Shown piece after piece: positions 5,804 to 57,971 of a stretch of DNA of 64,000 nucleotides. The position numbers were made by a program, and so were the translations under genes. The stretch covers positions 5,980-69,979 of the forward strand of contig JAFUIR010000008.1 in the NCBI GenBank assembly GCA_017468395.1, written 5' to 3'. This DNA comes from Lachnospiraceae bacterium. GTDB lineage: Bacteria; Bacillota; Clostridia; Lachnospirales; Lachnospiraceae. The stretch's first letter is position 1. Each line of letters begins with the position of its first letter. Under the pieces are notes generated by a model. That model saw only the letters and a list, made by a program, of their open reading frames with translations, was not told where the DNA came from and did no database searches.

Positions 5804-7015
5804 ATGCAAAAGAAAATAAGTCTGCTTCTTTCGGTTTTACTGGTTGTAACTGTAGCATTGGCGGCCGGATGTGTGTTGTATATGAAAAACCGCCCAACCC
5901 GCCAAAATGCCATAGAATCAACACAGGAAACGGAAATGATATCAGTCACGGCATCGGAAACAAAAACTTCTGTTACAGAGCAAATAGAAGAGACAGAAAG
6001 CGGCTTTGAAACGGAAGCGGAAAGTGAGCCGGTGATAGCAGAGACCGAAACAAAGGAAGATGAGATTGTCACAATAACCATATCGGCGGCAGGGGACGTG
6101 ACATTGGGAACTTTGCATAACCATGGATATGAGTTGTCTCTTACAGAGGTGTATGATAACCATACACCGGCATATTTTTTCGAGAATGTGAAGCCTATTT
6201 TTGAGGCAGATGACATGACCCTTGTTAATTACGAGGGGGTGTTGACCTTATCCGATGAGCGCGTAGAGAAAAAATATAATATGAAGGGCGATCCGGAATA
6301 TGTACATATATTGACGGAAGGTGATATCGAGGCAGTAAGTTTTGCCAACAATCATCGCATGGATTACGGACAACAGGGCAGTGATGACACGGTGGCAGCT
6401 TTTGAGAGTGTAGGAATCACCTACGCTTATGATACGATTGTAGGATATTATGAGACGAAGGGTATTACCATCGGGTACATTTCCTTTAATGAAGTCTATG
6501 ACGGGGAAGCCGTAGAGGAATTCATACGCAGCGGAATGGAAGAACTGAAAGCTGCGGAGGTTGACTTGATTATTGCCTGCGGTCACTGGGGAAAGGAATT
6601 GCACCATTATCCTCAGGAATACCAGACCCAATTGGCACATATGTGTATTGATTTGGGGGCAGATTTGGTAGTGGGTCATCACCCGCATGTACTTCAGGGT
6701 GTAGATATTTATAACGGAAAATATATCGTGTATAGTCTTGGAAATTTTTGTTTCGGAGGAAATAAAAATCCAAAGGACAAGGACTCCATGATTTTTCAGC
6801 AGACCTTTACTTTTGTAAATGGCGAGCATGTGCAGGACGATAACATTAAAATCATACCGGTGCGTATCAGTTCCGTGTCCCATATAAATGATTATAAACC
6901 TACGCCGGCGCAAGGCGATGAGGCAAAGAATATCATTGATAGGGTGAACGAATACAGTGCAGGTTTTGGTTTGCAATTTGATTATGAAGGAAATATATTA
7001 AAGGAAAAGGAGTAG
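5804..7015 (+). CDS. CapA/PGA_cap family metallophosphatase-like membrane-anchored protein
   Basis: N-terminal TM, acidic linker, motifs AAGD, NYEG, ANNHRMDYG, HWG, GHHPHVLQ, YSLGNF. Confidence 0.9.
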   Translation: MQKKISLLLSVLLVVTVALAAGCVLYMKNRPTRQNAIESTQETEMISVTASETKTSVTEQIEETESGFETEAESEPVIAETETKEDEIVTITISAAGDVTLGTLHNHGYELSLTEVYDNHTPAYFFENVKPIFEADDMTLVNYEGVLTLSDERVEKKYNMKGDPEYVHILTEGDIEAVSFANNHRMDYGQQGSDDTVAAFESVGITYAYDTIVGYYETKGITIGYISFNEVYDGEAVEEFIRSGMEELKAAEVDLIIACGHWGKELHHYPQEYQTQLAHMCIDLGADLVVGHHPHVLQGVDIYNGKYIVYSLGNFCFGGNKNPKDKDSMIFQQTFTFVNGEHVQDDNIKIIPVRISSVSHINDYKPTPAQGDEAKNIIDRVNEYSAGFGLQFDYEGNILKEKE

Positions 7016-36626: not shown

Positions 36627-37478
36627 GTGTTTGAAATTATTGAACATACTTTATTAGATGCTGTTAGTTTGGTGCCGTTCTTATTTTTAACATATTTGGT
36701 AATGGAGTGGCTGGAACATAAAGCAGGAAAGAAAGCACAGAAGTTTATGGAAAAAAGCGGTCAGTACGGGCCGGTTTGGGGAAGCGTACTCGGCGCCATT
36801 CCCCAGTGCGGATTTTCCGCAGCCGCAGCCAATTTGTATGCCGGACGTGTTATTACCATGGGTACGCTGGTTGCAATTTATCTTTCCACTTCTGATGAGA
36901 TGATTCCCATTATGATTTCGGAAGCGGTAGATCCTGTAACAATTGTGAAGATTGTAGCTTTAAAGATTGTGATTGGTATGGCTGCCGGTTTGCTGTTGGA
37001 TTTTATGTTGCCGGATAAACACGACGAGCATAATCATATTCATGAGATGTGTGAACATGAGCATTGTCATTGTGGGGAAGGCAAGGGCATTGTACGCTCT
37101 GCCATTACTCATACATTGAAGATTACGGTATTTATTTTACTGATTACTTTTATTTTGAATCTTATCCTACACAACGGCGGCGAGGATGTGATAGCTGACT
37201 TCCTTATGAATAAACCCGTAATCGGCCCTTTGGTTGCAGGCATTGTGGGATTAATTCCAAACTGTGTTTCTTCTGTGGTTATTACAAGATTGTACATAGA
37301 AGGTGCAATGAGTTTTGGCGCGCTGATGTCAGGTTTACTTGTGAATGCGGGTGTAGGTATGCTGGTGCTGCTTCGTTCTAATGCGGACAGAAAGGAAGCG
37401 CTCAAAATTATAGGTATTGCGTGTGGTATAGGTATGGTTGCAGGTATTATTATCGATTTCATGCAGGTAGCGTTTTAA
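36627..37478 (+). CDS. Putative divalent-metal (Mn/Zn/Co) transporter, ArsP_2/DUF2899-like, with His-rich loop
   Basis: PQCGFS, LSTSDE and PNCVSS motifs; DKHDEHNHIHEMCEHEHCHC loop; GTG start with GGAGG RBS. Confidence 0.8.
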   Translation: MFEIIEHTLLDAVSLVPFLFLTYLVMEWLEHKAGKKAQKFMEKSGQYGPVWGSVLGAIPQCGFSAAAANLYAGRVITMGTLVAIYLSTSDEMIPIMISEAVDPVTIVKIVALKIVIGMAAGLLLDFMLPDKHDEHNHIHEMCEHEHCHCGEGKGIVRSAITHTLKITVFILLITFILNLILHNGGEDVIADFLMNKPVIGPLVAGIVGLIPNCVSSVVITRLYIEGAMSFGALMSGLLVNAGVGMLVLLRSNADRKEALKIIGIACGIGMVAGIIIDFMQVAF

Positions 37479-37492
37479 AGAGGAGATTTACA

Positions 37493-37930
37493 ATGCACAA
37501 TCATGTGTGTGATACAACAACTTCATATCCTGCGGGGATGAAATGGACCAAACAGCGTAAAGATGTCTATCATGTGTTGGCTCATGCCCACGAGCCTATG
37601 AGTGCGGTTCAGATTTATCAGCAGATAGAAAAGGAAGAGAGTGCAGGATATGCGCTTTCCACAATTTATCGGATTTTAACAGCTTTTGAGGAAAAAGGCT
37701 ATGTGTCCAAATCCACTTTTATGGGAGATGGAACAGTCGTTTATGAATGGAACAAAGGCGAGCATACCCATTACGCTCTTTGCCTTTCCTGCCATAAGAG
37801 GGTGGCGCTTCCGTCTTGCCCCTTTGAGCATGTGCATTTGGAAAGCGATGCCGGAGATTTTACTGTAACGGGACATAAACTGGAACTTTACGGGTACTGT
37901 AAAGACTGCGAAAAGCAGAAACTGTCGTAA
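37493..37930 (+). CDS. Fur family regulator (Zur/PerR-like, two CxxC)
   Basis: KWTKQR, STIYRIL, HTHYALCLSC, GYCKDC. Confidence 0.92.
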   Translation: MHNHVCDTTTSYPAGMKWTKQRKDVYHVLAHAHEPMSAVQIYQQIEKEESAGYALSTIYRILTAFEEKGYVSKSTFMGDGTVVYEWNKGEHTHYALCLSCHKRVALPSCPFEHVHLESDAGDFTVTGHKLELYGYCKDCEKQKLS

Positions 37931-38340: not shown

Positions 38341-38398
38341 TTGACAACAAATGGGTAATATGTTACCATTTATCCCAAGAAAGGTAACATGTTACCTT
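38341..38398 (+). promoter_or_regulatory. marR promoter with two palindromic operators
   Basis: TTGACA-N17-TACCAT; GGTAATATGTTACC (38354-67) and perfect AAGGTAACATGTTACCTT (38381-98). Confidence 0.75.
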
Positions 38399-38411
38399 GT
38401 TGGAGGTGCCT

Positions 38412-38882
38412 ATGAATTTTGATGAAGTTATGAAACATGAGAATATAGACTTTAGCGGTATAGAAACGTCTTATTTTCTCTTAGGATTACTTAGCGCATT
38501 TGACAACCGGTTTCAGGCGGTGGCAGATAAACTCATTGGGGAAATCAGTTGGAAACAGTTTTTTGCAATTATTTGCATTAATCTCTGTAAAGAAAGCCCC
38601 ACTATAAAGGAACTGGCGGCAATCATGGGTAGTTCCCATCAAAATGTAAAACAAATTCTCTTAAAACTTGAGAAAAAAGGTTTTGTGGCTATATCCGTAG
38701 ACCGGGAGGACAAGAGAAAACAAAGGGTTGAACTTACGCAGAAATGCTTGGAGTTTTGTAATGAGAATGACGGGAAAAGTAATATGGCAGTTACTGCCAT
38801 GTTTGCAGGCATTTCAGAAGAACAACTTCGCATAACAATACAGACGATTATGCAGATGGAAGATAATTTAAAAAAATTGTAA
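38412..38882 (+). CDS. MarR family regulator
   Basis: SWKQF, TIKELA, SHQNVKQILLKLEKKGFV, DKR. Confidence 0.9.
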   Translation: MNFDEVMKHENIDFSGIETSYFLLGLLSAFDNRFQAVADKLIGEISWKQFFAIICINLCKESPTIKELAAIMGSSHQNVKQILLKLEKKGFVAISVDREDKRKQRVELTQKCLEFCNENDGKSNMAVTAMFAGISEEQLRITIQTIMQMEDNLKKL

Positions 38883-38892
38883 GGAGATTACC

Positions 38893-39420
38893 ATGGGAAA
38901 AGGGATTATTTTATATCAATCAAAATATGGCGCCACGAAGAAATACGCAGAGTGGTTGAAGGAAGCAACTCAGTTTGATTGCATAGAGACGAAGAGCGCC
39001 GACATTAAAAAAGTGCAGGAATATGATGTGATTATTCTTGGCGGCGGTGTTTATGCATCCGGAATTGCAGGGCTGTCATTTTTGAAAAAGAACATACAAA
39101 ATTTAAAAGATAAGAAAATTGCAGTATTTTGCGTAGGCGCATCTCCCTACGATGAAGATGCACTGGCAGAAGGGTATAAACATAACTTTAAAGAAGCACT
39201 TCAAGGGCTTCCTTGTTTTTATTGTCGCGGTGCATGGAATGAAGATGCCATGTCTTTTACAGACAGAACGTTATGCAAGATGCTTAAGAAAGCAGTTGCG
39301 AAGCAGGACCCGTCCACATATGAACCATGGCAAAAGGCATTGATGAGTGCAGTGGGACAAAATTGCGATTGGACGGACAGAAAATATATCGCGCCCATAT
39401 TAGAGTACATAAAAGAATAA
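38893..39420 (+). CDS. Flavodoxin-domain protein (Flavodoxin_5/HemG-like)
   Basis: YQSKYGATKKYAEW, GGGVYA, FCVG, DWTD. Confidence 0.88.
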   Translation: MGKGIILYQSKYGATKKYAEWLKEATQFDCIETKSADIKKVQEYDVIILGGGVYASGIAGLSFLKKNIQNLKDKKIAVFCVGASPYDEDALAEGYKHNFKEALQGLPCFYCRGAWNEDAMSFTDRTLCKMLKKAVAKQDPSTYEPWQKALMSAVGQNCDWTDRKYIAPILEYIKE

Positions 39421-39567: not shown

Positions 39568-40008
39568 ATGCTTTTAATCCCAAAACGAAAAGAAAAGCAG
39601 GAGTTCAGAAAGCCAAATGCGGATAAGGTGCGAAGTTATGCAAAGAAAATGGAACTGGAATTGGCAGTGGAGTTGGCAATCGAAGACTGTATTGCAGAAA
39701 ATGTTTTGAGGGATTTTCTGGTGTCGCAGAGAGCGGAGGTAACTATGGTAAGTATTTTCGAGTATGATGAAGAGCGGGAATTGAGACTTATTAGAGAAGA
39801 CGAACGAGAAATTGGAAGAGAAATCGGAAGACAGGAAATGCAGGAAGAAAACCGGAAAGTACAAGCAGAACACATAAAGTCTGTAATTTCCCTATGCAGG
39901 GAGTTTGGTTGCAATGATGAGCAGATTGTAGAGAAACTGATGGAGCAGTGCCATCTGAGCAAAGAAGAAGCCAAAACAGTCATCAAAGCGTTCATAGGCT
40001 GCCAATAA
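39568..40008 (+). pseudogene. N-terminally truncated Rpn/PD-(D/E)XK-family remnant with an internal RBS+ATG (39745..40008, 87 aa)
   Basis: AIEDCIAENVLRDFL...RAEV..SIFEYDEE...EREIGREIG is typical of such C-termini; nuclease domain absent; GGAGGT at 39735-40 precedes an in-frame ATG at 39745. Confidence 0.6.
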
Positions 40009-40014
40009 GAGAGA

Positions 40015-40054
40015 AGTCCCATCACTTTGGAGTTAGAAGTGATGGGACTGTTTT
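40015..40054. terminator. Terminator between convergent genes
   Basis: AGTCCCATCACTT-N9-AAGTGATGGGACT. Confidence 0.8.
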
Positions 40055-40089: not shown

Positions 40090-41607
40090 CTATTCAAAAT
40101 ACTTCATGGGGTCAACCGCAACATTATCTACGAAGACTCCAAAGGAAAGGTTTGGTCCGGTTGCCATGCCTGTGGCACCTACATGACCGATAATAGTTCC
40201 GGCAGATACTTCATCTCCTGCGGAAACCAGAACATCTTGCAAGTGACCGTAAATGACAAGGGTATCGTCTGCACCTGCAACGGAGATGTAGATGCAGTTA
40301 CCGTTATGGGGGCTATAAAGGGTCTCAGTAACAATACCTGCTACTGCGGAATAAACATCGTCCCCTTTTTCACCAGCAATATTAATGTGATCCACAGTTT
40401 TGTTTTCGCCGGTAACAGGATGGACACGGGTACCGAAGGTACTGGAAATGGTGGAACTTTCTGTAGGCCAAGTCCATAAATCTATCTGTATAGCGTCGGT
40501 ATTCTTGTCTGTGCCGGTAACAGGATTGGCCACAGGGGGATTTTCTGCTTCGGTATTCGCAGGTATCTCGGTGGCAACAGCATCTGCAATTTCTGTGCTG
40601 TCGGTGTTTTGCTGAGATTGTGCCCTATTACTGTCATCCGGTTCGGCAGCATTTGCTGATGTCAGGAAACAAGTGCCGATGCACAAAATCAGTGCAAAGG
40701 CAGCAATGCCGCCAAACAGCGTAAACTTTTTAGGTTTCATAATGGCTATAATCCTTTCTTCAATTGTGTTTTTGCTAAAACTATTGAAGAGAAGCGTAGG
40801 AACAGACCGTTGCTCCTCCATGCTGACAAGGGTTCGGGCATAACCGGTCCTGGATTCTGTGCCGGATTTTCTTACCACAGCCTCGTCACAGGATAGTTCT
40901 AAGTCCCGGTTGAAAAGAAAATACATAATCCAAACCAAAGGATTGAACCAGTGGAGGCAGAGGGTGATAATCATGAGTAATTTTGCCACCGGGTCAAAAC
41001 GGCGGATGTGAATGTACTCATGCAGGAAAATATAATTTAGTTGCTCCCTATTATCTAAATCTACTGTCTTTGGCAGCAAAATCACAGGGCGGATAAAGCC
41101 ATACGTCAGAGGGGATGAAATAAGGTCTGACCGGCGGATGCTGATTTCACGCCTTGCGGGGTGTTCCCTTAGCCACTTCTCTGTATAGTTCGTAGAAACA
41201 GGTAAGGAGGTTTTGTAATTTCTAAGGCATGTTATGTAACATATTGCAAAGAAGACCGCAAAGAACATAAATCCCACAAACCATGTAATTTCCCAAGGAA
41301 AAGTGTTATTACCGGCATTTGTTACCGGGGCTGTATCGTGGAAACCCATGGTTTCGAAAGGTAACAAAGGCAGCGCAGTTGCGAGCGGGGACTCTGTGAT
41401 AACGTCCTGCACTTTTTCATTTCTGCCAAAGAGTGAGTACACGCTAAAGGCTGAGGGGATAGAAAAAGGCAGTATCAAACGGACCAGTGCAATGCCCCAT
41501 AGAGAAAGGAAAAATCCTTTGGGAAAGCGGTTAATGAACAGCGTCCGAATGAGCGCAATTACCGCAATGAGTACTGCGCCGGACAAACTCATTTGTAATA
41601 AATTCAT
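40090..41607 (-). CDS. BlaR1/MecR1-type M56 metallopeptidase receptor with a C-terminal degenerate M23/LytM domain
   Basis: SPLTYG, HEYIH (HExxH), HWFNPLVW, ELSCD; then TM, linker and an M23 fold with VDHIN and GPNLSF. Confidence 0.9.
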   Translation of the reverse strand: MNLLQMSLSGAVLIAVIALIRTLFINRFPKGFFLSLWGIALVRLILPFSIPSAFSVYSLFGRNEKVQDVITESPLATALPLLPFETMGFHDTAPVTNAGNNTFPWEITWFVGFMFFAVFFAICYITCLRNYKTSLPVSTNYTEKWLREHPARREISIRRSDLISSPLTYGFIRPVILLPKTVDLDNREQLNYIFLHEYIHIRRFDPVAKLLMIITLCLHWFNPLVWIMYFLFNRDLELSCDEAVVRKSGTESRTGYARTLVSMEEQRSVPTLLFNSFSKNTIEERIIAIMKPKKFTLFGGIAAFALILCIGTCFLTSANAAEPDDSNRAQSQQNTDSTEIADAVATEIPANTEAENPPVANPVTGTDKNTDAIQIDLWTWPTESSTISSTFGTRVHPVTGENKTVDHINIAGEKGDDVYSAVAGIVTETLYSPHNGNCIYISVAGADDTLVIYGHLQDVLVSAGDEVSAGTIIGHVGATGMATGPNLSFGVFVDNVAVDPMKYFE

Positions 41608-41617
41608 ACCGCTCACC

Positions 41618-41977
41618 TCACTCTAAATCACCGATAATCTGTTTAAGTTGCTCAATCTGCTTTGCAGAAAGTTTCTTGCGTCCAAGGAGAGCGGCAAACA
41701 ATTTATCTTCGCAGCCATCATAAATTTTGTTGATGAGTTCGTTTGTCTCTGCCTCTTGAACTTCTTCCTTTTGGATAAGAGCATGACACATAAAATTTGG
41801 TTCAGACCGCAAAATGGCGCCTTTTCCAATGCACCTTTTAATCAGAGTGTAGGTGGTGTTCATATTCCAGCCCACTTCTTCCTTAAGCACATCGGAAATA
41901 TGTTTTGCGGTACAGTCGCCTTCGCGCCAAAGGACGTCCATAACCTTAAGTTCAGAATCAAATAATTTTTCAGTCAT
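41618..41977 (-). CDS. BlaI/MecI/CopY family repressor
   Basis: LFDSELKVMDVLW, WNMNTTYTLIKRC, IYDG. Confidence 0.93.
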   Translation of the reverse strand: MTEKLFDSELKVMDVLWREGDCTAKHISDVLKEEVGWNMNTTYTLIKRCIGKGAILRSEPNFMCHALIQKEEVQEAETNELINKIYDGCEDKLFAALLGRKKLSAKQIEQLKQIIGDLE

Positions 41978-41992
41978 ACTGTGTCCTCCTTC

Positions 41993-42064
41993 AAACTACT
42001 CGAGTAGTTTACATCTACATACTACCGCAGTAGTTTCGATTTGTCAATACACTACTGGAGTAGT
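41993..42064 (-). promoter_or_regulatory. blaI promoter with three ACTAC-N4-GTAGT operators
   Basis: Sites at 41993-42010 (perfect palindrome), 42021-34 and 42051-64; minus-strand TTGACA (42042-47)-N17-TAGTAT. Confidence 0.8.
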
Positions 42065-42209
42065 TTGGTGCAAAATTTTATGAAAAGTAAATTTTTACGA
42101 TTTTCTGGATAAAGAGGATTTACCGGAAACAAAAAAAGAGATATGCTAAAAATGAAAGATTTGTTATGAAAAAGTTATTGTTAAAAATTGTAATCGGGAG
42201 GATGTGTTT

Positions 42210-44048
42210 ATGGCAAAAAATTGGGACACGGGCATAGATAAAAGAAAGACATTTTTCAATCTGGAAGATTTTTCTTTAGGAGATGTACAACTTTTAGATG
42301 AATATGAAGTGAATGCCTTTGCTTTGGAAGTGAAGTATTTGAAGTCTATTGATGCGGACAGATTGATTAGGGGATTTCAGGATATCGCAGGAATCTCGTC
42401 GGCGAACCCGCTCTATGGCGGATGGGAGACTTCAAATATTCAGGGGCATACACTGGGACATTATATGACAGCGGTGTCACAAGCCTATGGTGCCACCAAA
42501 GATGAAGAACTTTTGAATATTATTAATCATATGGCAGATGTTTTGGCACAGTGCCAAAATGCGAAGACGGGCTATCTGGCGGCAATTCCGGAAAGCCACT
42601 ATGCGCAAATTGAAAATGGAAAACCTGACGGGACATGGGTGCCTTGGTATTCTATGCACAAAATCATGTCCGGTCTGATAGCGGCATATGAAAAAGCGGG
42701 TAGCAAGAAAAGTCTGGAAGTGGCAGGTAAACTGGGGGACTGGGTGTACTCCAGAACTTCTAAGTGGACGCCGGAAATGCAAACGGTAGTGTTAAATGTG
42801 GAATACGGCGGAATGAACGACTGTCTGTACCAGTTATATAAGCACACAAAATCCGAAAAACATTTATCGGCGGCTCATAGTTTTGATGAACTATCCCTGT
42901 TTGATGCACTTTATGAGGGAAAGGATGTATTGAAAGACAAACATGCCAACACCACTATCCCCAAGATTATGGGTGCCTTAAACAGATATATAGCGCTGGG
43001 TAAGGGAGAAGAATATTATCTCCGGGTGGCAGAAAATTTCTGGGAAATCGTGATAAAGAGCCACACCTATATTACCGGCGGCAACAGCGAGTGGGAACAT
43101 TTCGGGGAGCCGGGTATTTTGGATGCAGAAAGAACCAACTGCAACTGCGAGACATGCAACACCTATAATATGCTGAAACTTACCAGAGAACTGTTTAAGA
43201 TTACGGGAAAGTCTAAATATGCGGACTACTATGAGAATACATTTATTAATGCTATTCTTTCTTCCCAAAATCCGCAAACCGGCATGACTACTTATTTCCA
43301 GCCCATGGCAACAGGGTTTTTTAAGGTGTACAGTTCCGCTTTCGACCATTTTTGGTGCTGTACGGGTTCCGGCATGGAGAATTTCTCCAAACTGGGAGAC
43401 AGCATTTATTATAAGGACAAAAACAGTATTTATGTGACACAATTTGTTTCTTCCAAAGTCACATGGAAGGAGAAGGGCTTGCTGATTACGCAGGAAAGTT
43501 ATATTCCTGAAACGGATGTCACAAAATTTACCGTGGAAACATTGTCAGGGGAAACCGTAGAAGCGGATATTGTGCTGCGCGTGCCGGATTGGTGCGCAAA
43601 GTCTGCCACTGTGAAAATAAACGGCGCCGAAGCGGAAGCCAAAATAGAGAATGGTTTTTTGTGTGTATCCCGTGATTGGAATAGCGGCGACGTGCTGGAA
43701 TATAGCATTCCTATGGAAGTGGTGGCATATGACTTGCCGGATAACAAAAATGCGGTTGCTTTTAAGTATGGTCCCGTAGTTTTGAGTGTCAATTTGGGCT
43801 CGGAGGATATGAGAACGGATGTTACGGGAGTGAATGTTACCATTCCCACCTGTTCTGTGCCGGTAAATGATGTGATTAAAGTTACAAGGGGAAGGCCTCA
43901 AGAATGGCTTGCAAACGTAAGCGGTAATGTAGTAAGAAGGGAAGGGAAACTGGCTTTTATTTTGAAGGATACCGATAGGGATTTGGTGTTTACACCTCAT
44001 TATATGCAGCATCAAAACAGATATGGCATTTATTTCCGTTTGGAATAG
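42210..44048 (+). CDS. Beta-L-arabinofuranosidase, GH127/GH146 family (no signal peptide)
   Basis: GHTLGHY, EYGGMND, HANTTIP, ETCNTYNMLKL, FWCCTGSGMEN. Confidence 0.9.
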   Translation: MAKNWDTGIDKRKTFFNLEDFSLGDVQLLDEYEVNAFALEVKYLKSIDADRLIRGFQDIAGISSANPLYGGWETSNIQGHTLGHYMTAVSQAYGATKDEELLNIINHMADVLAQCQNAKTGYLAAIPESHYAQIENGKPDGTWVPWYSMHKIMSGLIAAYEKAGSKKSLEVAGKLGDWVYSRTSKWTPEMQTVVLNVEYGGMNDCLYQLYKHTKSEKHLSAAHSFDELSLFDALYEGKDVLKDKHANTTIPKIMGALNRYIALGKGEEYYLRVAENFWEIVIKSHTYITGGNSEWEHFGEPGILDAERTNCNCETCNTYNMLKLTRELFKITGKSKYADYYENTFINAILSSQNPQTGMTTYFQPMATGFFKVYSSAFDHFWCCTGSGMENFSKLGDSIYYKDKNSIYVTQFVSSKVTWKEKGLLITQESYIPETDVTKFTVETLSGETVEADIVLRVPDWCAKSATVKINGAEAEAKIENGFLCVSRDWNSGDVLEYSIPMEVVAYDLPDNKNAVAFKYGPVVLSVNLGSEDMRTDVTGVNVTIPTCSVPVNDVIKVTRGRPQEWLANVSGNVVRREGKLAFILKDTDRDLVFTPHYMQHQNRYGIYFRLE

Positions 44049-47306: not shown

Positions 47307-47360
47307 TTGACAAATATGTCTAATGGTATTAGACTAAAGTTGTCTAAAGGCATTAGACAA
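47307..47360 (+). promoter_or_regulatory. Second blaI promoter with two GTCTAA-N5-TTAGAC operators
   Basis: TTGACA-N17-TAGACT; sites at 47318-34 and 47342-58. Confidence 0.8.
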
Positions 47361-47418: not shown

Positions 47419-47790
47419 ATGGAGCAGTTTAAATTGGGAGAAATGGAGCAACGGTTGGCGGATTTGATTTGGGGGCACGAGCCGCTCAGTTCGGGGGAAC
47501 TTGTAAAATTATGTGAAGGAGCTTTTGACTGGAAGAGGACTACGACTTACACCATGCTCAAGAGACTTTGCGAGAGAAATATTTTTGCGAACGAAAACGG
47601 TACAGTGGTGGCGTTGATGTCCAAGGAGGAATTTCAGGCTGCCAGAGGGGAACAGTTTATTAATGATAATTTTGAGGGCTCTCTGCCACAGTTTTTGGCG
47701 GCCTTTTCCCGCAGAAAAAAATTGGGGGAAAAAGAAATTCTTGAACTGAAACGATTGATTGATGAATATGAGGAGGGGGACAATGATTGA
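47419..47790 (+). CDS. BlaI/MecI/CopY family repressor
   Basis: LGEMEQRLADLIW, WKRTTTYTMLKRL, FEGSLPQFLAAF. Confidence 0.93.
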   Translation: MEQFKLGEMEQRLADLIWGHEPLSSGELVKLCEGAFDWKRTTTYTMLKRLCERNIFANENGTVVALMSKEEFQAARGEQFINDNFEGSLPQFLAAFSRRKKLGEKEILELKRLIDEYEEGDND

Positions 47791-50350
47791 AGGGGCTTTT
47801 ATAAGTATTGTGAATATGAGCCTGACGGCAACAGTGGCAATCTTGGCGGTTTTATTAGCGAGAACGATGCTGCGCAGAGCGCCGAAGATTTTTTCCTACA
47901 TACTGTGGGTGGTGGTACTGTTCCGTCTGGTTTGTCCGGTTTCTTTTACCGCGGACTTTTCCATTTATAGTTTGTTGCCTGTTTCAGTTTTGCAACAAAC
48001 CGGAGAAATCCGTCAGGAAAGTGTGAACAGACCTTATGGGGATAATATGGATTTTGTGCAAATCATAGATGGACTGTCTGTACAAGAAGAGCCGCATCTA
48101 AATACTATAGGTAGTGATGCAGCGGAAAATTTAGTGACCGGCAAAGAGGCACAAAGCCAGATGCTGAGTGCGCAGGAAAACCCCAAGAGTCCTGCAGAGT
48201 TGTTTATGCAAATCGGAAGTATTGTTTGGCTTTCAGGCGTGGGGATTTTGGTATTATATAGTTTTGTGACATTTGTGTCACTTAAGAAAAGCCTTAGGAA
48301 CGCAGTACATGTGCGGGACAATGTATATACAACATACAACCTGATAACTCCCTTTGTATGCGGTGTTATCCGTCCACGGATTTATTTGCCCGCAGGACTT
48401 AGGGAAGAGGAAAAAAGATACATTTTGCTGCACGAGCAGATACATATCAGAAGAGGCGACCATCTGGTGAAACTTATGAGTTTCGCGGCGCTTTGCCTGC
48501 ATTGGTTTAATCCGTTTGCATGGCTGGCTTTTTTCCTTAGTGGGAAAGACATGGAGATGTCCTGTGACGAGGCTGTTATCCGAAAACTGGGTAGCGGTGT
48601 GAAAAAAGAGTATTCGTCCTCTCTTTTGGCACTGGCTACGGGCAGGCGGATTATCAGCGGTGTACCCTTGGCCTTTGGCGAGGGTGACACCGGCTCCCGC
48701 ATTAAGAATGTGCTCCGATATAAAAAACCGGCGGTGATTCTGGTGGGCGTGGCAACAGTGCTACTTATCGTGATGTGCGGTATGCTTTTGGCGAATCCCG
48801 CTGCAAAGGATAACCAAGACCTTAAATGGGGTCAGACCGCCATGTATGGGGTAATTGTGGAAGTGGATGTGCTTGGCGACGGAACGCTTCAACAGGTAGT
48901 GAGTATTCCCGGAAACGGCGAAGTAGAGATACCAAAGGCAAAAGAAGTGGTGTCTTATGTGGATAAGAAAAATTTTCGGGGCTTAGAGACAGGAGATGTG
49001 GTCCGCATTGTGTTCTCCTGGGGGAAAGATACTTCTATTATGGAGACTTATCCCGGTAGATTTTCTGTAGAAGCAGAAAAAATTGAGGTGTACGCAAAAG
49101 GCTACAGTCTGGCTTATCAAGGCCAAAATAAATATCATTTTACCATACCTGCATCAGAAATTCCCGGCTGGGAAGAAGCGGTAGCGGGAGATATGTTGAC
49201 CATTTATGATAAAGCTTACCTTTCCGGCGAGGAGTCGGAGGCTTTGGTAGAGGCGAAGGTGCTGACCGTCACAGAAGCGGAGGAATCCGGTGATGCAGCC
49301 TTTATAGCAGAGGTGGCTATGCAGGATATGGGTAAGGTGTTACAGGCCTTCCCTTACGGCGTGACCTATTCTGTCGGCAAAATACCTTGGTATGAGGCTT
49401 CCAACGGCACCTACTTTCTGGAGATATTGGAGTATTCCAAAGAAGACAAAACCATTGAGAAATATAGGTGGTTAAATAGGGATGATAAAGAGGAGAGAGA
49501 AATAAGTACGGATGAGCCCATTTACATTGGGGACTGTCATATTGGTCTGTATGAAGGAATACAGGAAATAGAGAATGTTTACTATGAAAAGAATCTGACC
49601 AAATTCGTCCGCTGTATGGAACTTGGCTCCGAGGAAGTACCTAAAATGTGCTTAATCGATATTTGGGACGGAAAGGTAGACCATGTTGGGCTGATGGAAC
49701 CCTATGCGGGCGTGGGAATCCGGACCGGACAAGCAGCCTATAGAAATGTGGGTGCAGGAGAAGATACATGGTATGAAGATATTCGGCAGTTAGAAGGAGA
49801 AGATGTGCTGGATAAATATTATACACTTGCCCATACAGAAAGTTTGAATGTGGCTACAGAGCCCGGCGATGAACTGATAGAAGTTTATACCGGAAACATC
49901 GGAGACGGAGACAGCGGAGTGGTATTGTTTAAAGATGTGGATGGTAATCTGCTGCATGACCTTTCAGCCCATACCGCCAGAGCGGGTTGGAATAATATTT
50001 ATGTGGGCACCATAGGAAGTGAGACTTCCGGAAAATATGGTAAGGATACTTCTTTTATTATGATAGTCCATATTGAGAACCGGGATACTTATGGCGAATA
50101 TAGTTATGCATTATATAAACTGACAAAGGATGGAAAATCCTATATGGAAATGTCCTCCTTTACCTTCGGGGAACCCTATGAATATGATGAGGAATATTTT
50201 AAACAATGGGTAAATGGTTTGGAATATTATCTTGTTAACAGTCATTTGCTTCTCAGTACACAGGATGGAGAAGTCCGCACCGGTTGGGTAAATGATGTGG
50301 TAAGATACAATTATGAAACCCTCCGCCCTACGGGAGTGATAACAAAGTAA
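47783..50350 (+). CDS. BlaR1-type M56 receptor with a large non-penicillin-binding ectodomain
   Basis: HEQIH, HWFNPFAW, EMSCDE, RIKNVL, TM, then about 500 aa with no SxxK. Confidence 0.88.
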   Translation: MIEGAFISIVNMSLTATVAILAVLLARTMLRRAPKIFSYILWVVVLFRLVCPVSFTADFSIYSLLPVSVLQQTGEIRQESVNRPYGDNMDFVQIIDGLSVQEEPHLNTIGSDAAENLVTGKEAQSQMLSAQENPKSPAELFMQIGSIVWLSGVGILVLYSFVTFVSLKKSLRNAVHVRDNVYTTYNLITPFVCGVIRPRIYLPAGLREEEKRYILLHEQIHIRRGDHLVKLMSFAALCLHWFNPFAWLAFFLSGKDMEMSCDEAVIRKLGSGVKKEYSSSLLALATGRRIISGVPLAFGEGDTGSRIKNVLRYKKPAVILVGVATVLLIVMCGMLLANPAAKDNQDLKWGQTAMYGVIVEVDVLGDGTLQQVVSIPGNGEVEIPKAKEVVSYVDKKNFRGLETGDVVRIVFSWGKDTSIMETYPGRFSVEAEKIEVYAKGYSLAYQGQNKYHFTIPASEIPGWEEAVAGDMLTIYDKAYLSGEESEALVEAKVLTVTEAEESGDAAFIAEVAMQDMGKVLQAFPYGVTYSVGKIPWYEASNGTYFLEILEYSKEDKTIEKYRWLNRDDKEEREISTDEPIYIGDCHIGLYEGIQEIENVYYEKNLTKFVRCMELGSEEVPKMCLIDIWDGKVDHVGLMEPYAGVGIRTGQAAYRNVGAGEDTWYEDIRQLEGEDVLDKYYTLAHTESLNVATEPGDELIEVYTGNIGDGDSGVVLFKDVDGNLLHDLSAHTARAGWNNIYVGTIGSETSGKYGKDTSFIMIVHIENRDTYGEYSYALYKLTKDGKSYMEMSSFTFGEPYEYDEEYFKQWVNGLEYYLVNSHLLLSTQDGEVRTGWVNDVVRYNYETLRPTGVITK

Positions 50351-57113: not shown

Positions 57114-57971
57114 ATGGCGAATCTGGGAATACCACAGAATACCATTGCAGTTTTGCAGAAATACAATTTTAATTTTCAAAAAAGATTCGGACAAAATTTC
57201 CTGATTGATACTTCTGTGCTGGATAGAATTATTTCGGCGGCGGAAATTACCAAGGATGATTGTGTACTGGAAATCGGTCCCGGAATCGGAACCATGACAC
57301 AATACCTGGCAGAAAGTGCAAGAGAAGTGGTGGCGGTGGAGATTGATAAAAATCTGATTCCCATTTTAGAGGATACACTGTCCGAATACGATAACGTGAC
57401 AGTGATTAATGAGGATATTTTGAAGGTGGACATTGCCAAAATCGTGGAGGAGCGAAACGGCGGAAAGCCTATTAAAGTAGTGGCAAATCTGCCTTATTAT
57501 ATTACCACACCCATTATTATGGGGTTGTTTGAAAGTCATGTACCTTTAAAAAGTATTACCATCATGGTACAAAAAGAAGTGGCTGACCGGATGCAGGTGG
57601 GCCCCGGAACAAAAGATTACGGCGCTCTTTCTTTGGCGGTACAGTATTATGCCAAGCCGGAAATTGTGGCAAATGTGCCCCCCAACTGTTTTATTCCCAG
57701 GCCAAGCGTAGGCAGTGCGGTTATCAGGCTGACCAGATTTGAAAATCCGCCGGTGGAAGTGAATGATGAGAAGTTTATGTTTGCCCTCATCCGTGCATCT
57801 TTTAACCAAAGAAGAAAAACTCTGGTAAACGGTCTCACAGGTGCAGGAGATTTGCATCTTACAAAGGAGCAGGTAATTGCAGCATTGGAAAGAATGAAAT
57901 TATCGCCTCAAGTGCGCGGAGAGGCGCTGACTTTGGAACAGTTTGCGCTGCTTAGCAGAGAGTTAGACTGA
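57114..57971 (+). CDS. rsmA: 16S rRNA dimethyladenosine transferase
   Basis: FGQNFLID, EIGPGIG, VANLPYYIT, QRRKTL. Confidence 0.97.
   Translation: MANLGIPQNTIAVLQKYNFNFQKRFGQNFLIDTSVLDRIISAAEITKDDCVLEIGPGIGTMTQYLAESAREVVAVEIDKNLIPILEDTLSEYDNVTVINEDILKVDIAKIVEERNGGKPIKVVANLPYYITTPIIMGLFESHVPLKSITIMVQKEVADRMQVGPGTKDYGALSLAVQYYAKPEIVANVPPNCFIPRPSVGSAVIRLTRFENPPVEVNDEKFMFALIRASFNQRRKTLVNGLTGAGDLHLTKEQVIAALERMKLSPQVRGEALTLEQFALLSRELD

Follow-up and report, generated by a model that had tools for sequence, protein, structure and literature searches.

A BlaI/BlaR1-type gene pair of a Lachnospiraceae bacterium with a degenerate LytM domain in place of the penicillin-binding sensor

The window analysed here, a stretch of 64,000 nt covering positions 5,980 to 69,979 of contig JAFUIR010000008.1 from a Lachnospiraceae bacterium (GCA_017468395.1), contains two genes that encode a BlaI-like repressor and a BlaR1-like membrane protein of the M56 peptidase family (hereafter BlaI and BlaR). 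The pair is best described as a two-gene, autorepressed unit of the BlaI/BlaR1 type, in which a LytM (M23) domain without catalytic function, tethered outside the membrane by a long, flexible and acidic linker, takes the place of the penicillin-binding sensor, and a probability of roughly 0.6 is given to this reading. A preliminary description, made from the DNA letters, had proposed a receptor of this kind, and its open reading frames, motifs and coordinates were recovered as claimed, with an exact match for VDHIN and GPNLSF (Table 1).

The outer domain of BlaR was said to be an M23 fold and not a penicillin-binding domain, a view shared by Pfam, phmmer and Foldseek. Peptidase_M23 (PF01551) matches residues 411–503 with an E-value of 6.4e-19 and 68.4 bits vs a cut-off of 28.7. 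The active-site correspondences come from the phmmer alignment to PDB entries, that is ShyA and other solved M23 enzymes. V408-D-H-I-N412 aligns with H-N-G-T-D of ShyA, Y-G-H458-L with Y-L-H-L, and G-P-N489-L-S491-F with G-P-H-L-H-Y. The three zinc ligands (the His and Asp of HxxxD and the second His of HxH) and the catalytic first His of HxH are all substituted, the middle catalytic residue His458 is kept, and His410 stands in the position where a glycine usually separates the two ligands. These correspondences at the three motifs bear out the proposed loss of all zinc ligands together with one catalytic histidine.

The AlphaFold2 model, which had been suggested as a check, has a mean predicted local distance difference test (pLDDT) score of 76, with values above 90 for the transmembrane (TM)/M56 part and for residues 381–508; the extracellular loop L2 and the linker are disordered, the latter with pLDDT below 50. 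The M23 part superposes on ShyA with a root-mean-square deviation of 1.6 Å over 125 residues (Foldseek). The C-terminal part is also matched by Foldseek to LytM, DipM and the LytM domain of EnvC, with template-modelling scores of 0.76–0.86 for EnvC and DipM, the value for EnvC being 0.86. Among active enzymes, the DD-endopeptidases ShyC, ShyA and MepM come closest by model score. All family models of degenerate LytM regulators stay far below their cut-offs, among them those of NlpD (46 vs 311), ActS (44.5 vs 375), SpoIIQ (41 vs 250) and EnvC (22 vs 270).

The substitutions are shared with many related proteins. A sample of 74 M56+M23 fusions was assembled by a word-indexed search and an exhaustive representative search, and a fusion was called degenerate if its M23 domain is without at least one zinc ligand; 54 are degenerate and 20 are fully intact. 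Asp-His at positions +1/+2 of the old HxxxD is found in 50 of the 54 degenerate fusions and is missing from intact M23 domains, and domains with this signature are referred to here as DH-type. No degenerate fusion has the last His of HxH (its place is taken by Ser in 27, Ala in 18, Gly in 4, Leu in 4 and Thr in 1), 50 of 54 keep the middle His, and the other former ligand positions vary freely. At least one Cys is present at the former Asp or first-His position, equivalent to residues 412 and 489, in 41 of 54, and its distribution over the two positions is complementary (N/C 13, C/N 12, T/C 9 and C/C 3), beside the conserved His410 and His458. The window protein has Asn at both positions (N412, nt 40381–40383; N489, nt 40150–40152). 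None of the 54 degenerate fusions contains a frameshift or truncation. Average-linkage clustering of 191 M23 domains places 62 of the 64 DH-type sequences in one cluster without an intact member, which points to a single old origin of the DH-type degeneracy.

An alignment of such fusions had been put forward as the way to distinguish a conserved loss from recent decay, and decay was not borne out, the loss being clade-wide down to ~40% identity. The syntenic ortholog P0003 (locus L003), which is 62–64% identical to the window protein, reads HDHID...Q...HLS and is degenerate in another way. The ratio of nonsynonymous to synonymous substitution rates (dN/dS) relative to P0003 is ~0.12 for the M23 domain and ~0.16 for M56, rough values because dS is saturated. 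The linker is only 40% identical to that of P0003 and contains indels, while the M23 domain is ~63% identical. The low dN/dS beside a freely diverging linker shows that the M23 domain is kept by selection without the canonical site, the purifying selection being at least as strong as on M56. Recent decay and a pseudogene are rejected because of the clade-wide conservation together with dN/dS relative to the ortholog. Comparison with a 95%-identical relative gives dN/dS of 0.66 for M23 and 0.59 for M56, with just 25 changes in M23, too few to be informative.

The scaffold that carries this domain is that of BlaR1. Residues 5–292 are assigned by Pfam to Peptidase_M56 (PF05569; 2.7e-50, 171.6 bits vs a cut-off of 31), and the N-terminal part of the AlphaFold2 model, ~330 residues, matches the chains of S. 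aureus BlaR1 determined by cryo-EM (Foldseek). In the alignment to S. aureus BlaR1, HEYIH (residues 199–203) falls on H201-E202-x-x-H205 and E240 on E242, and H199, E200, H203 and E240 are invariant across 44 fusion homologs; the M56 protease is therefore considered intact, as had been stated. TM1–TM4 are placed by hydropathy at residues 10–28, 35–53, 113–131 and 300–318, and loop L2 comprises residues 56–106. Loop L1 and the M56 loop are rich in Lys and Arg, and L2, the linker and the M23 domain are acidic. The hydropathy and the charge pattern argue for the topology of BlaR1, in which M56 faces the cytoplasm and the C-terminal domain is extracellular. Homologs differ in the length and sequence of the linker. 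At the outer end of TM4 the motif F(A/L)TSA (LTSAN at residues 317–321, ~40657–40665) is conserved throughout the subfamily regardless of the C-terminal domain and in some members resembles an AxA signal-peptidase site. Processing at the AxA-like TSANA after TM4 was considered and is unsupported, since this is a scaffold motif of the M56 subfamily that often occurs without AxA.

The repressor gene lies directly upstream, in line with the earlier statement that a BlaI is adjacent. The 119-residue protein matches Penicillinase_R (PF03965) at 2.6e-21 and 76.5 bits vs a cut-off of 22.6, and the MecI structure 1sd6 at 9.4e-12. Every NCBIfam match of this BlaI is under its cut-off, including that to the CopY/TcrY model TIGR02698 (65.5 vs 121.95), and the CopY-type CxCxxxxCxC motif is not present in its C-terminus, which ends ...KQIIGDLE without a Cys cluster. 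Three predicted palindromic operators lie over the promoter of the operon, the middle one overlapping the promoter spacer and the -10 element, and a ribosome-binding site, AGGAGG, is found at 41985–41990. The operator triple with the 26/30-nt spacing recurs in loci L003, L006, L020 and L035, and L077 contains a triple at 26/28 nt; L020 and L035 are LytM-type loci, and L006 keeps the triple despite unrelated flanking genes.

A collection scan for two palindromes 12–42 nt apart gave at least 120 matches and was followed by tblastn. At least about 75 loci from Lachnospiraceae and Oscillospiraceae contain the palindromes, then a BlaI of 56–89% identity and then an M56 gene of 34–56% identity; an M23 domain is present in four M56 genes of those ~75 loci, among the matches listed. 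Since operator and BlaI precede M56 genes with other C-terminal domains, the outer domains appear to be swapped on a constant output unit; judged by sequence, the chassis of repressor, operator and protease stays constant and the outer domains are exchangeable. Conservation across contexts is confined to the blaI-blaR pair; no third gene or target conserved beside it was found, and the neighbours differ in L003, L004 and L006.

The DH-type domain is also found outside M56 proteins, where it was detected with a profile of the degenerate domain. P0129, P0140 and P0132, proteins of 219–228 residues, each consist of a short cytoplasmic tail, one transmembrane segment and a LytM domain that is DH-type and, as in the window protein, of the N/N kind. 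Each is encoded directly after the gene of an extracytoplasmic function (ECF) sigma factor, with an overlap of 14 nt for P0140 and P0132, and by this gene position the three are putative anti-sigma factors. The same subtype would then serve two unrelated transmembrane signalling outputs, which suggests that the DH-type LytM is an input module; this reuse is the strongest argument that supports a portable extracytoplasmic role. A wider proposal, tentative but possible, is that the DH-type dead LytM is a portable extracytoplasmic receptor of gut Clostridia for at least two unrelated outputs, the M56/BlaI and ECF sigma/anti-sigma systems, one that would report how peptidoglycan is cross-linked or whether a wall hydrolase is present and in which a rebuilt His/His/Cys pocket at the former zinc site may help recognition.

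By analogy with BlaR1, BlaI dimers on the operators would hold the operon low in the resting state. The binding of a ligand in the groove of the degenerate LytM domain, or its loss, would be signalled via TM4 to the M56 domain, M56 would cleave BlaI, and the operon would be derepressed together with any operator-bearing genes elsewhere in the genome. The cleavage of BlaI by M56 is inferred from homology with BlaR1/BlaI. The ligand is most likely a peptide segment. It could be a stem peptide or cross-link of peptidoglycan, given that the nearest active relatives are DD-endopeptidases of the MepM/ShyA type. It could instead be part of a protein that is secreted or bound to the wall, for example a loop or helix of a peptidoglycan hydrolase, since all characterised dead LytM domains bind proteins; to our knowledge every one of these (EnvC, NlpD, ActS, DipM and SpoIIQ) acts in this manner. 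The unit would thus report the state of the cell wall or attack by hydrolases, and the long acidic tether may let the LytM domain reach into the thick wall.

Several observations weigh against this picture. The scissile N-F pair of MecI/BlaI (N101-F102 in MecI) aligns to A-L in this BlaI. No operators other than the three promoter sites were found in the window, so that no further target gene is indicated there; an operator-like site with two mismatches at 57468 is within chance expectation. AlphaFold2 predicts no confident contact between the LytM domain and loop L2. A LytM-specific L2 motif that would mirror the loop-sensor contact of BlaR1 was considered and rejected, as FSVYSL...(D/E)xP...P is common to M56 paralogs with other sensors, and hence there is no sensor-specific co-variation. 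No anti-sigma Pfam domain was detected in P0129, P0140 or P0132, and no RNA runs containing the locus were found. The retention of zinc ligands in close homologs, as a sign of recent decay, had been named as what would refute the proposal, and this refutation fails, the loss being clade-wide. P0003 keeps two of the three ligands, and the 20 intact fusions of 74 show that the M56+M23 fusion as such is not tied to inactivity. The outer domain may thus act as an enzyme in part of the family. To call the whole clade “dead” may also go too far, in view of the two ligands of P0003, the conserved new His410 and the frequent Cys at the old metal site.

The LytM domain could instead be a targeting or effector module, which docks the protein at a particular site of the wall or activates or holds a peptidoglycan hydrolase in the manner of EnvC and NlpD, with the membrane part or L2 perceiving the signal. 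Known dead LytM domains are protein-binding regulators and not receptors, the fold matches EnvC and DipM, one DH-type LytM protein (P0130, described below) is coupled to a SEDS gene, and the L2 motif is common to all M56 paralogs whatever their C-terminal domain. Such a role is nevertheless unlikely, for the BlaI/operator/M56 unit bears many different C-terminal domains, as expected if inputs are exchangeable, this LytM subtype also stands on the single-pass proteins encoded after ECF sigma genes, whose outer domain is normally the sensor, and the protein is far under the cut-offs of the EnvC, NlpD and ActS models. It has also to be considered that the old active site was rebuilt, His410, His458 and a nearby Cys forming a new metal or thiol site for metal or redox sensing or for some chemistry. 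The window protein itself speaks against this, with Asn412 and Asn489 and no Cys at these positions, as do its ECF-linked relatives. The DH motif and the middle His (50 of 54 each), the complementary Cys (41 of 54) and the four potential ligands offered by HDHID...HLS of P0003 would fit a rebuilt site, but the residue counts are not independent events because the sequences are related, and this explanation is considered quite improbable.

A functionless, decaying M23 remnant on what would be a sensor-less M56/BlaI pair, like the mycobacterial BlaR, is very hard to reconcile with a confidently predicted fold, a clade-specific motif conserved in degenerate fusions that show no disruption, and a domain that has kept ~63% identity and a dN/dS of 0.12 relative to the ortholog next to a linker with 40% identity and indels; the missing catalytic residues and the high dN/dS from 25 changes relative to the 95%-identical relative (0.66, with 0.59 for M56) are what can be said for it. 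Least probable of all, and close to dismissed, is the reading as an ordinary beta-lactam sensor in control of a resistance gene. Membership in the M56/BlaI family and a best NCBIfam match to blaR1_generic speak for it, but this match reaches 107 vs a cut-off of 400 and covers the N-terminal 330 positions only, Pfam finds no penicillin-binding or transpeptidase domain, and no beta-lactamase or penicillin-binding protein gene adjoins the pair in the window, L003, L004 or L006.

The two-gene unit with a LytM sensor shares with the BlaR1/MecR1 and BlaI/MecI systems of S. aureus and Bacillus licheniformis the four transmembrane segments, the M56 HExxH motif with its Glu, the outer C-terminal domain, the adjacent gene of a BlaI-family repressor and the palindromic operators that overlap the promoter. 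Unlike in BlaR1, the outer domain is an M23 fold and not an acyl-enzyme penicillin-binding domain similar to class D beta-lactamases. The repressor gene comes first, no resistance gene is attached and the N-F pair is not conserved, which also sets the pair apart from those systems. The equivalog models of BlaR1/MecR1 are accordingly matched in the N-terminal part only and below their cut-offs (NF000326, 107 vs 400; NF033108, 45 vs 1200; NF033109, 45 vs 1200).

An extracytoplasmic M23 fold without zinc ligands is shared with EnvC, NlpD, ActS and DipM of Proteobacteria and with SpoIIQ of Bacillus. The present domain differs from factors of the EnvC type by the DH motif, the Cys frequent in its clade and the fusion to a signalling protease, by the lack of a coiled-coil, LysM or FtsEX partners, and by scores that exclude it from those families. 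No gene for a partner protein (amidase or SpoIIIAH) is found beside the gene in the window, L003, L004 or L006. Enzyme-derived sensing is known from RsiV and lysozyme in the sigmaV system, an ECF/anti-sigma pair. Unlike in such pairs, the output in the window is M56/BlaI and not site-1/site-2 proteolysis of an anti-sigma factor. The PbpP/sigmaP system (PMC8092216) is similar in that an outer domain related to a cell-wall enzyme provides the input for a transcription inhibitor to be degraded by regulated proteolysis.

The NCBI name “M23/M56 family metallopeptidase” already covers the same pair of domains, for example in P0036 from Defluviitaleaceae. A review of M23 peptidases (PMC9662197) gives the M23+M56 architecture as less than 1% of M23 proteins and reports that no role of M56 in peptidoglycan cleavage has been shown. 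Searches of the literature on M56 with LytM, on BlaR1-like sensor domains and on anti-sigma factors with degenerate LytM gave no functional study; the architecture is known in databases and in one review, and no paper was found on the degenerate clade or its function. The NCBI name implies two active peptidases, whereas the M23 part has lost its zinc ligands in the window protein and at least one of them in 54 of the 74 fusions, and taken in this sense it is probably wrong for most members.

BlaR1/BlaI is known almost exclusively for signalling the presence of beta-lactams, and the same unit here bears other outer domains. As it does so in at least about 75 Clostridia loci, the BlaI/operator/M56 unit seems to serve gut Firmicutes as a signalling chassis of general use. 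A conserved non-catalytic LytM that is reused on putative anti-sigma factors would, if true, mean that dead LytM domains act not only as enzyme activators but also as receptors; no earlier LytM fold would have served as a signal receptor and not as an enzyme or enzyme activator, and the domain would offer an entry point for studying wall monitoring in Gram-positive anaerobes.

Table 1. Features of the blaI-blaR locus in the 64,000-nt window (positions in nt of the window; a dot marks features without strand)
Feature	Position	Strand	Remarks
Hairpin, 14-bp stem	40015..40049	.	between convergent ends of blaR and ORF 39568-40008
blaR1-like gene	40090..41616	-	508 aa counted from GTG start
Degenerate LytM/M23 domain, DH-type	40093..40476	-	aa 381-508
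GPNLSF replacing GPHLHF (both HxH His lost)	40141..40158	-	N489, S491
YGHL with retained middle catalytic His H458	40240..40251	-	aligned to M23 enzymes
VDHIN in place of HxxxD (H to V, D to N)	40381..40395	-	V408-N412; D409-H410 is the clade signature
Acidic low-complexity extracellular linker	40477..40656	-	aa 321-380; 12 D+E vs 2 K+R
TM4	40657..40722	-	about aa 299-320; ends in conserved FxTSA motif
TM1-TM3 and cytoplasmic M56 gluzincin domain	40741..41604	-	aa 5-292; Pfam, hydropathy/charge, match to BlaR1 8exp
HEYIH zinc-binding/catalytic motif	41008..41022	-	H199, E200, H203; third ligand E240 at 40897-40899
blaI-like repressor gene	41618..41977	-	119 aa, winged-helix BlaI/MecI/CopY family, PF03965
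Palindromic operators ACTACTnnAGTAGT	41995-42008, 42021-42034 (1 mismatch), 42051-42064	.	upstream of blaI; predicted
Sigma-70-like promoter TTGACA-17-TAGTAT of the blaI-blaR operon	42019..42047	-	10/12 consensus match

The two genes are arranged head to tail on the minus strand, with the stop codon of blaI and the GTG start of blaR 1 nt apart. The true start of blaR is likely the ATG at 41607, where P0001, a 99%-identical homolog of 505 residues, begins. A 146-residue ORF without a Pfam match (39568–40008) converges on blaR, and the hairpin between them probably terminates both transcripts. The pair is flanked in the window (36627–37930 and 42204–44048) by genes of an ArsP_2-type permease, a Fur-family regulator and a GH127 beta-L-arabinofuranosidase, and genes of these three families are likewise found near the ortholog P0003. 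A MarR-like gene (38397–38882) and a flavodoxin-like ORF (38893–39420) are situated between the flanking genes. The locus was found in DNA runs of gut metagenomes only, the closest loci being from metagenome-assembled genomes of Lachnospiraceae; a scan of GTDB genomes for close relatives gave two loci, both M56-only.

Two further proteins contain the DH-type domain. P0130 (L132:2–1482) is membrane-anchored, and its gene overlaps the end of a gene of the SEDS (shape, elongation, division and sporulation) family FtsW/RodA/SpoVE by 4 nt, an arrangement of translational coupling; a Mur ligase gene follows 1.3 kb downstream. P0124, a secreted protein of 165 residues, has its gene flanked by a LytTR/HATPase_c_5 two-component pair on one side and by unknown genes on the other (L009:3052–7538, L010), a cluster that includes a sigma70 region-4 protein; in L009 a phage-type integrase gene adjoins.

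Operators of the same kind occur in other arrangements. In L029 (5015–6779) a triple of ACTACTnnRGTAGT precedes the gene of a 564-residue polytopic membrane protein without a Pfam match, which is followed by an M56 gene, and in L052 (936–3085) such a triple precedes a 701-residue M56 gene with no repressor gene; it is possible that these genes belong to the regulon of this BlaI subfamily or are its orphan sensors. The double-palindrome pattern is also present, with a fixed offset of 32 nt, in many loci of Burkholderia/Paraburkholderia (L013, L016, L019, L024 and others). Neither BlaI nor M56 is found near these, and they are presumably an unrelated repeat or operator.

P0015 belongs to a blaI-blaR(LytM) pair that in L004 (4705–7149) lies on a mobile element with a resolvase, a recombinase, TnpW, TnpV and a small Cys-rich ORF. 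Its operator is different, an inverted pair of the 19-mer TATAAGACTGyrGTATTAT. Four unknown genes and the gene of an ABC ATPase follow (L004:9500–14424); this ABC-type cluster was considered as a target and rejected, as it has no operator and the small Cys-rich ORF and a hairpin intervene.

The window itself contains a second BlaI/M56 pair, 6 kb away from the first, with genes at 47419–47790 (123 residues) and 47759–50350 (863 residues). Its proteins are 28–30% identical to those of the first pair, and the 520-residue outer region of the 863-residue protein has no Pfam match. The operator of the second pair, GTCTAA-N5-TTAGAC, is present twice (47318–47334 and 47342–47358), just after a TTGACA at 47307–47312, and because it differs from that of the first pair the two BlaI/M56 systems look insulated from each other.

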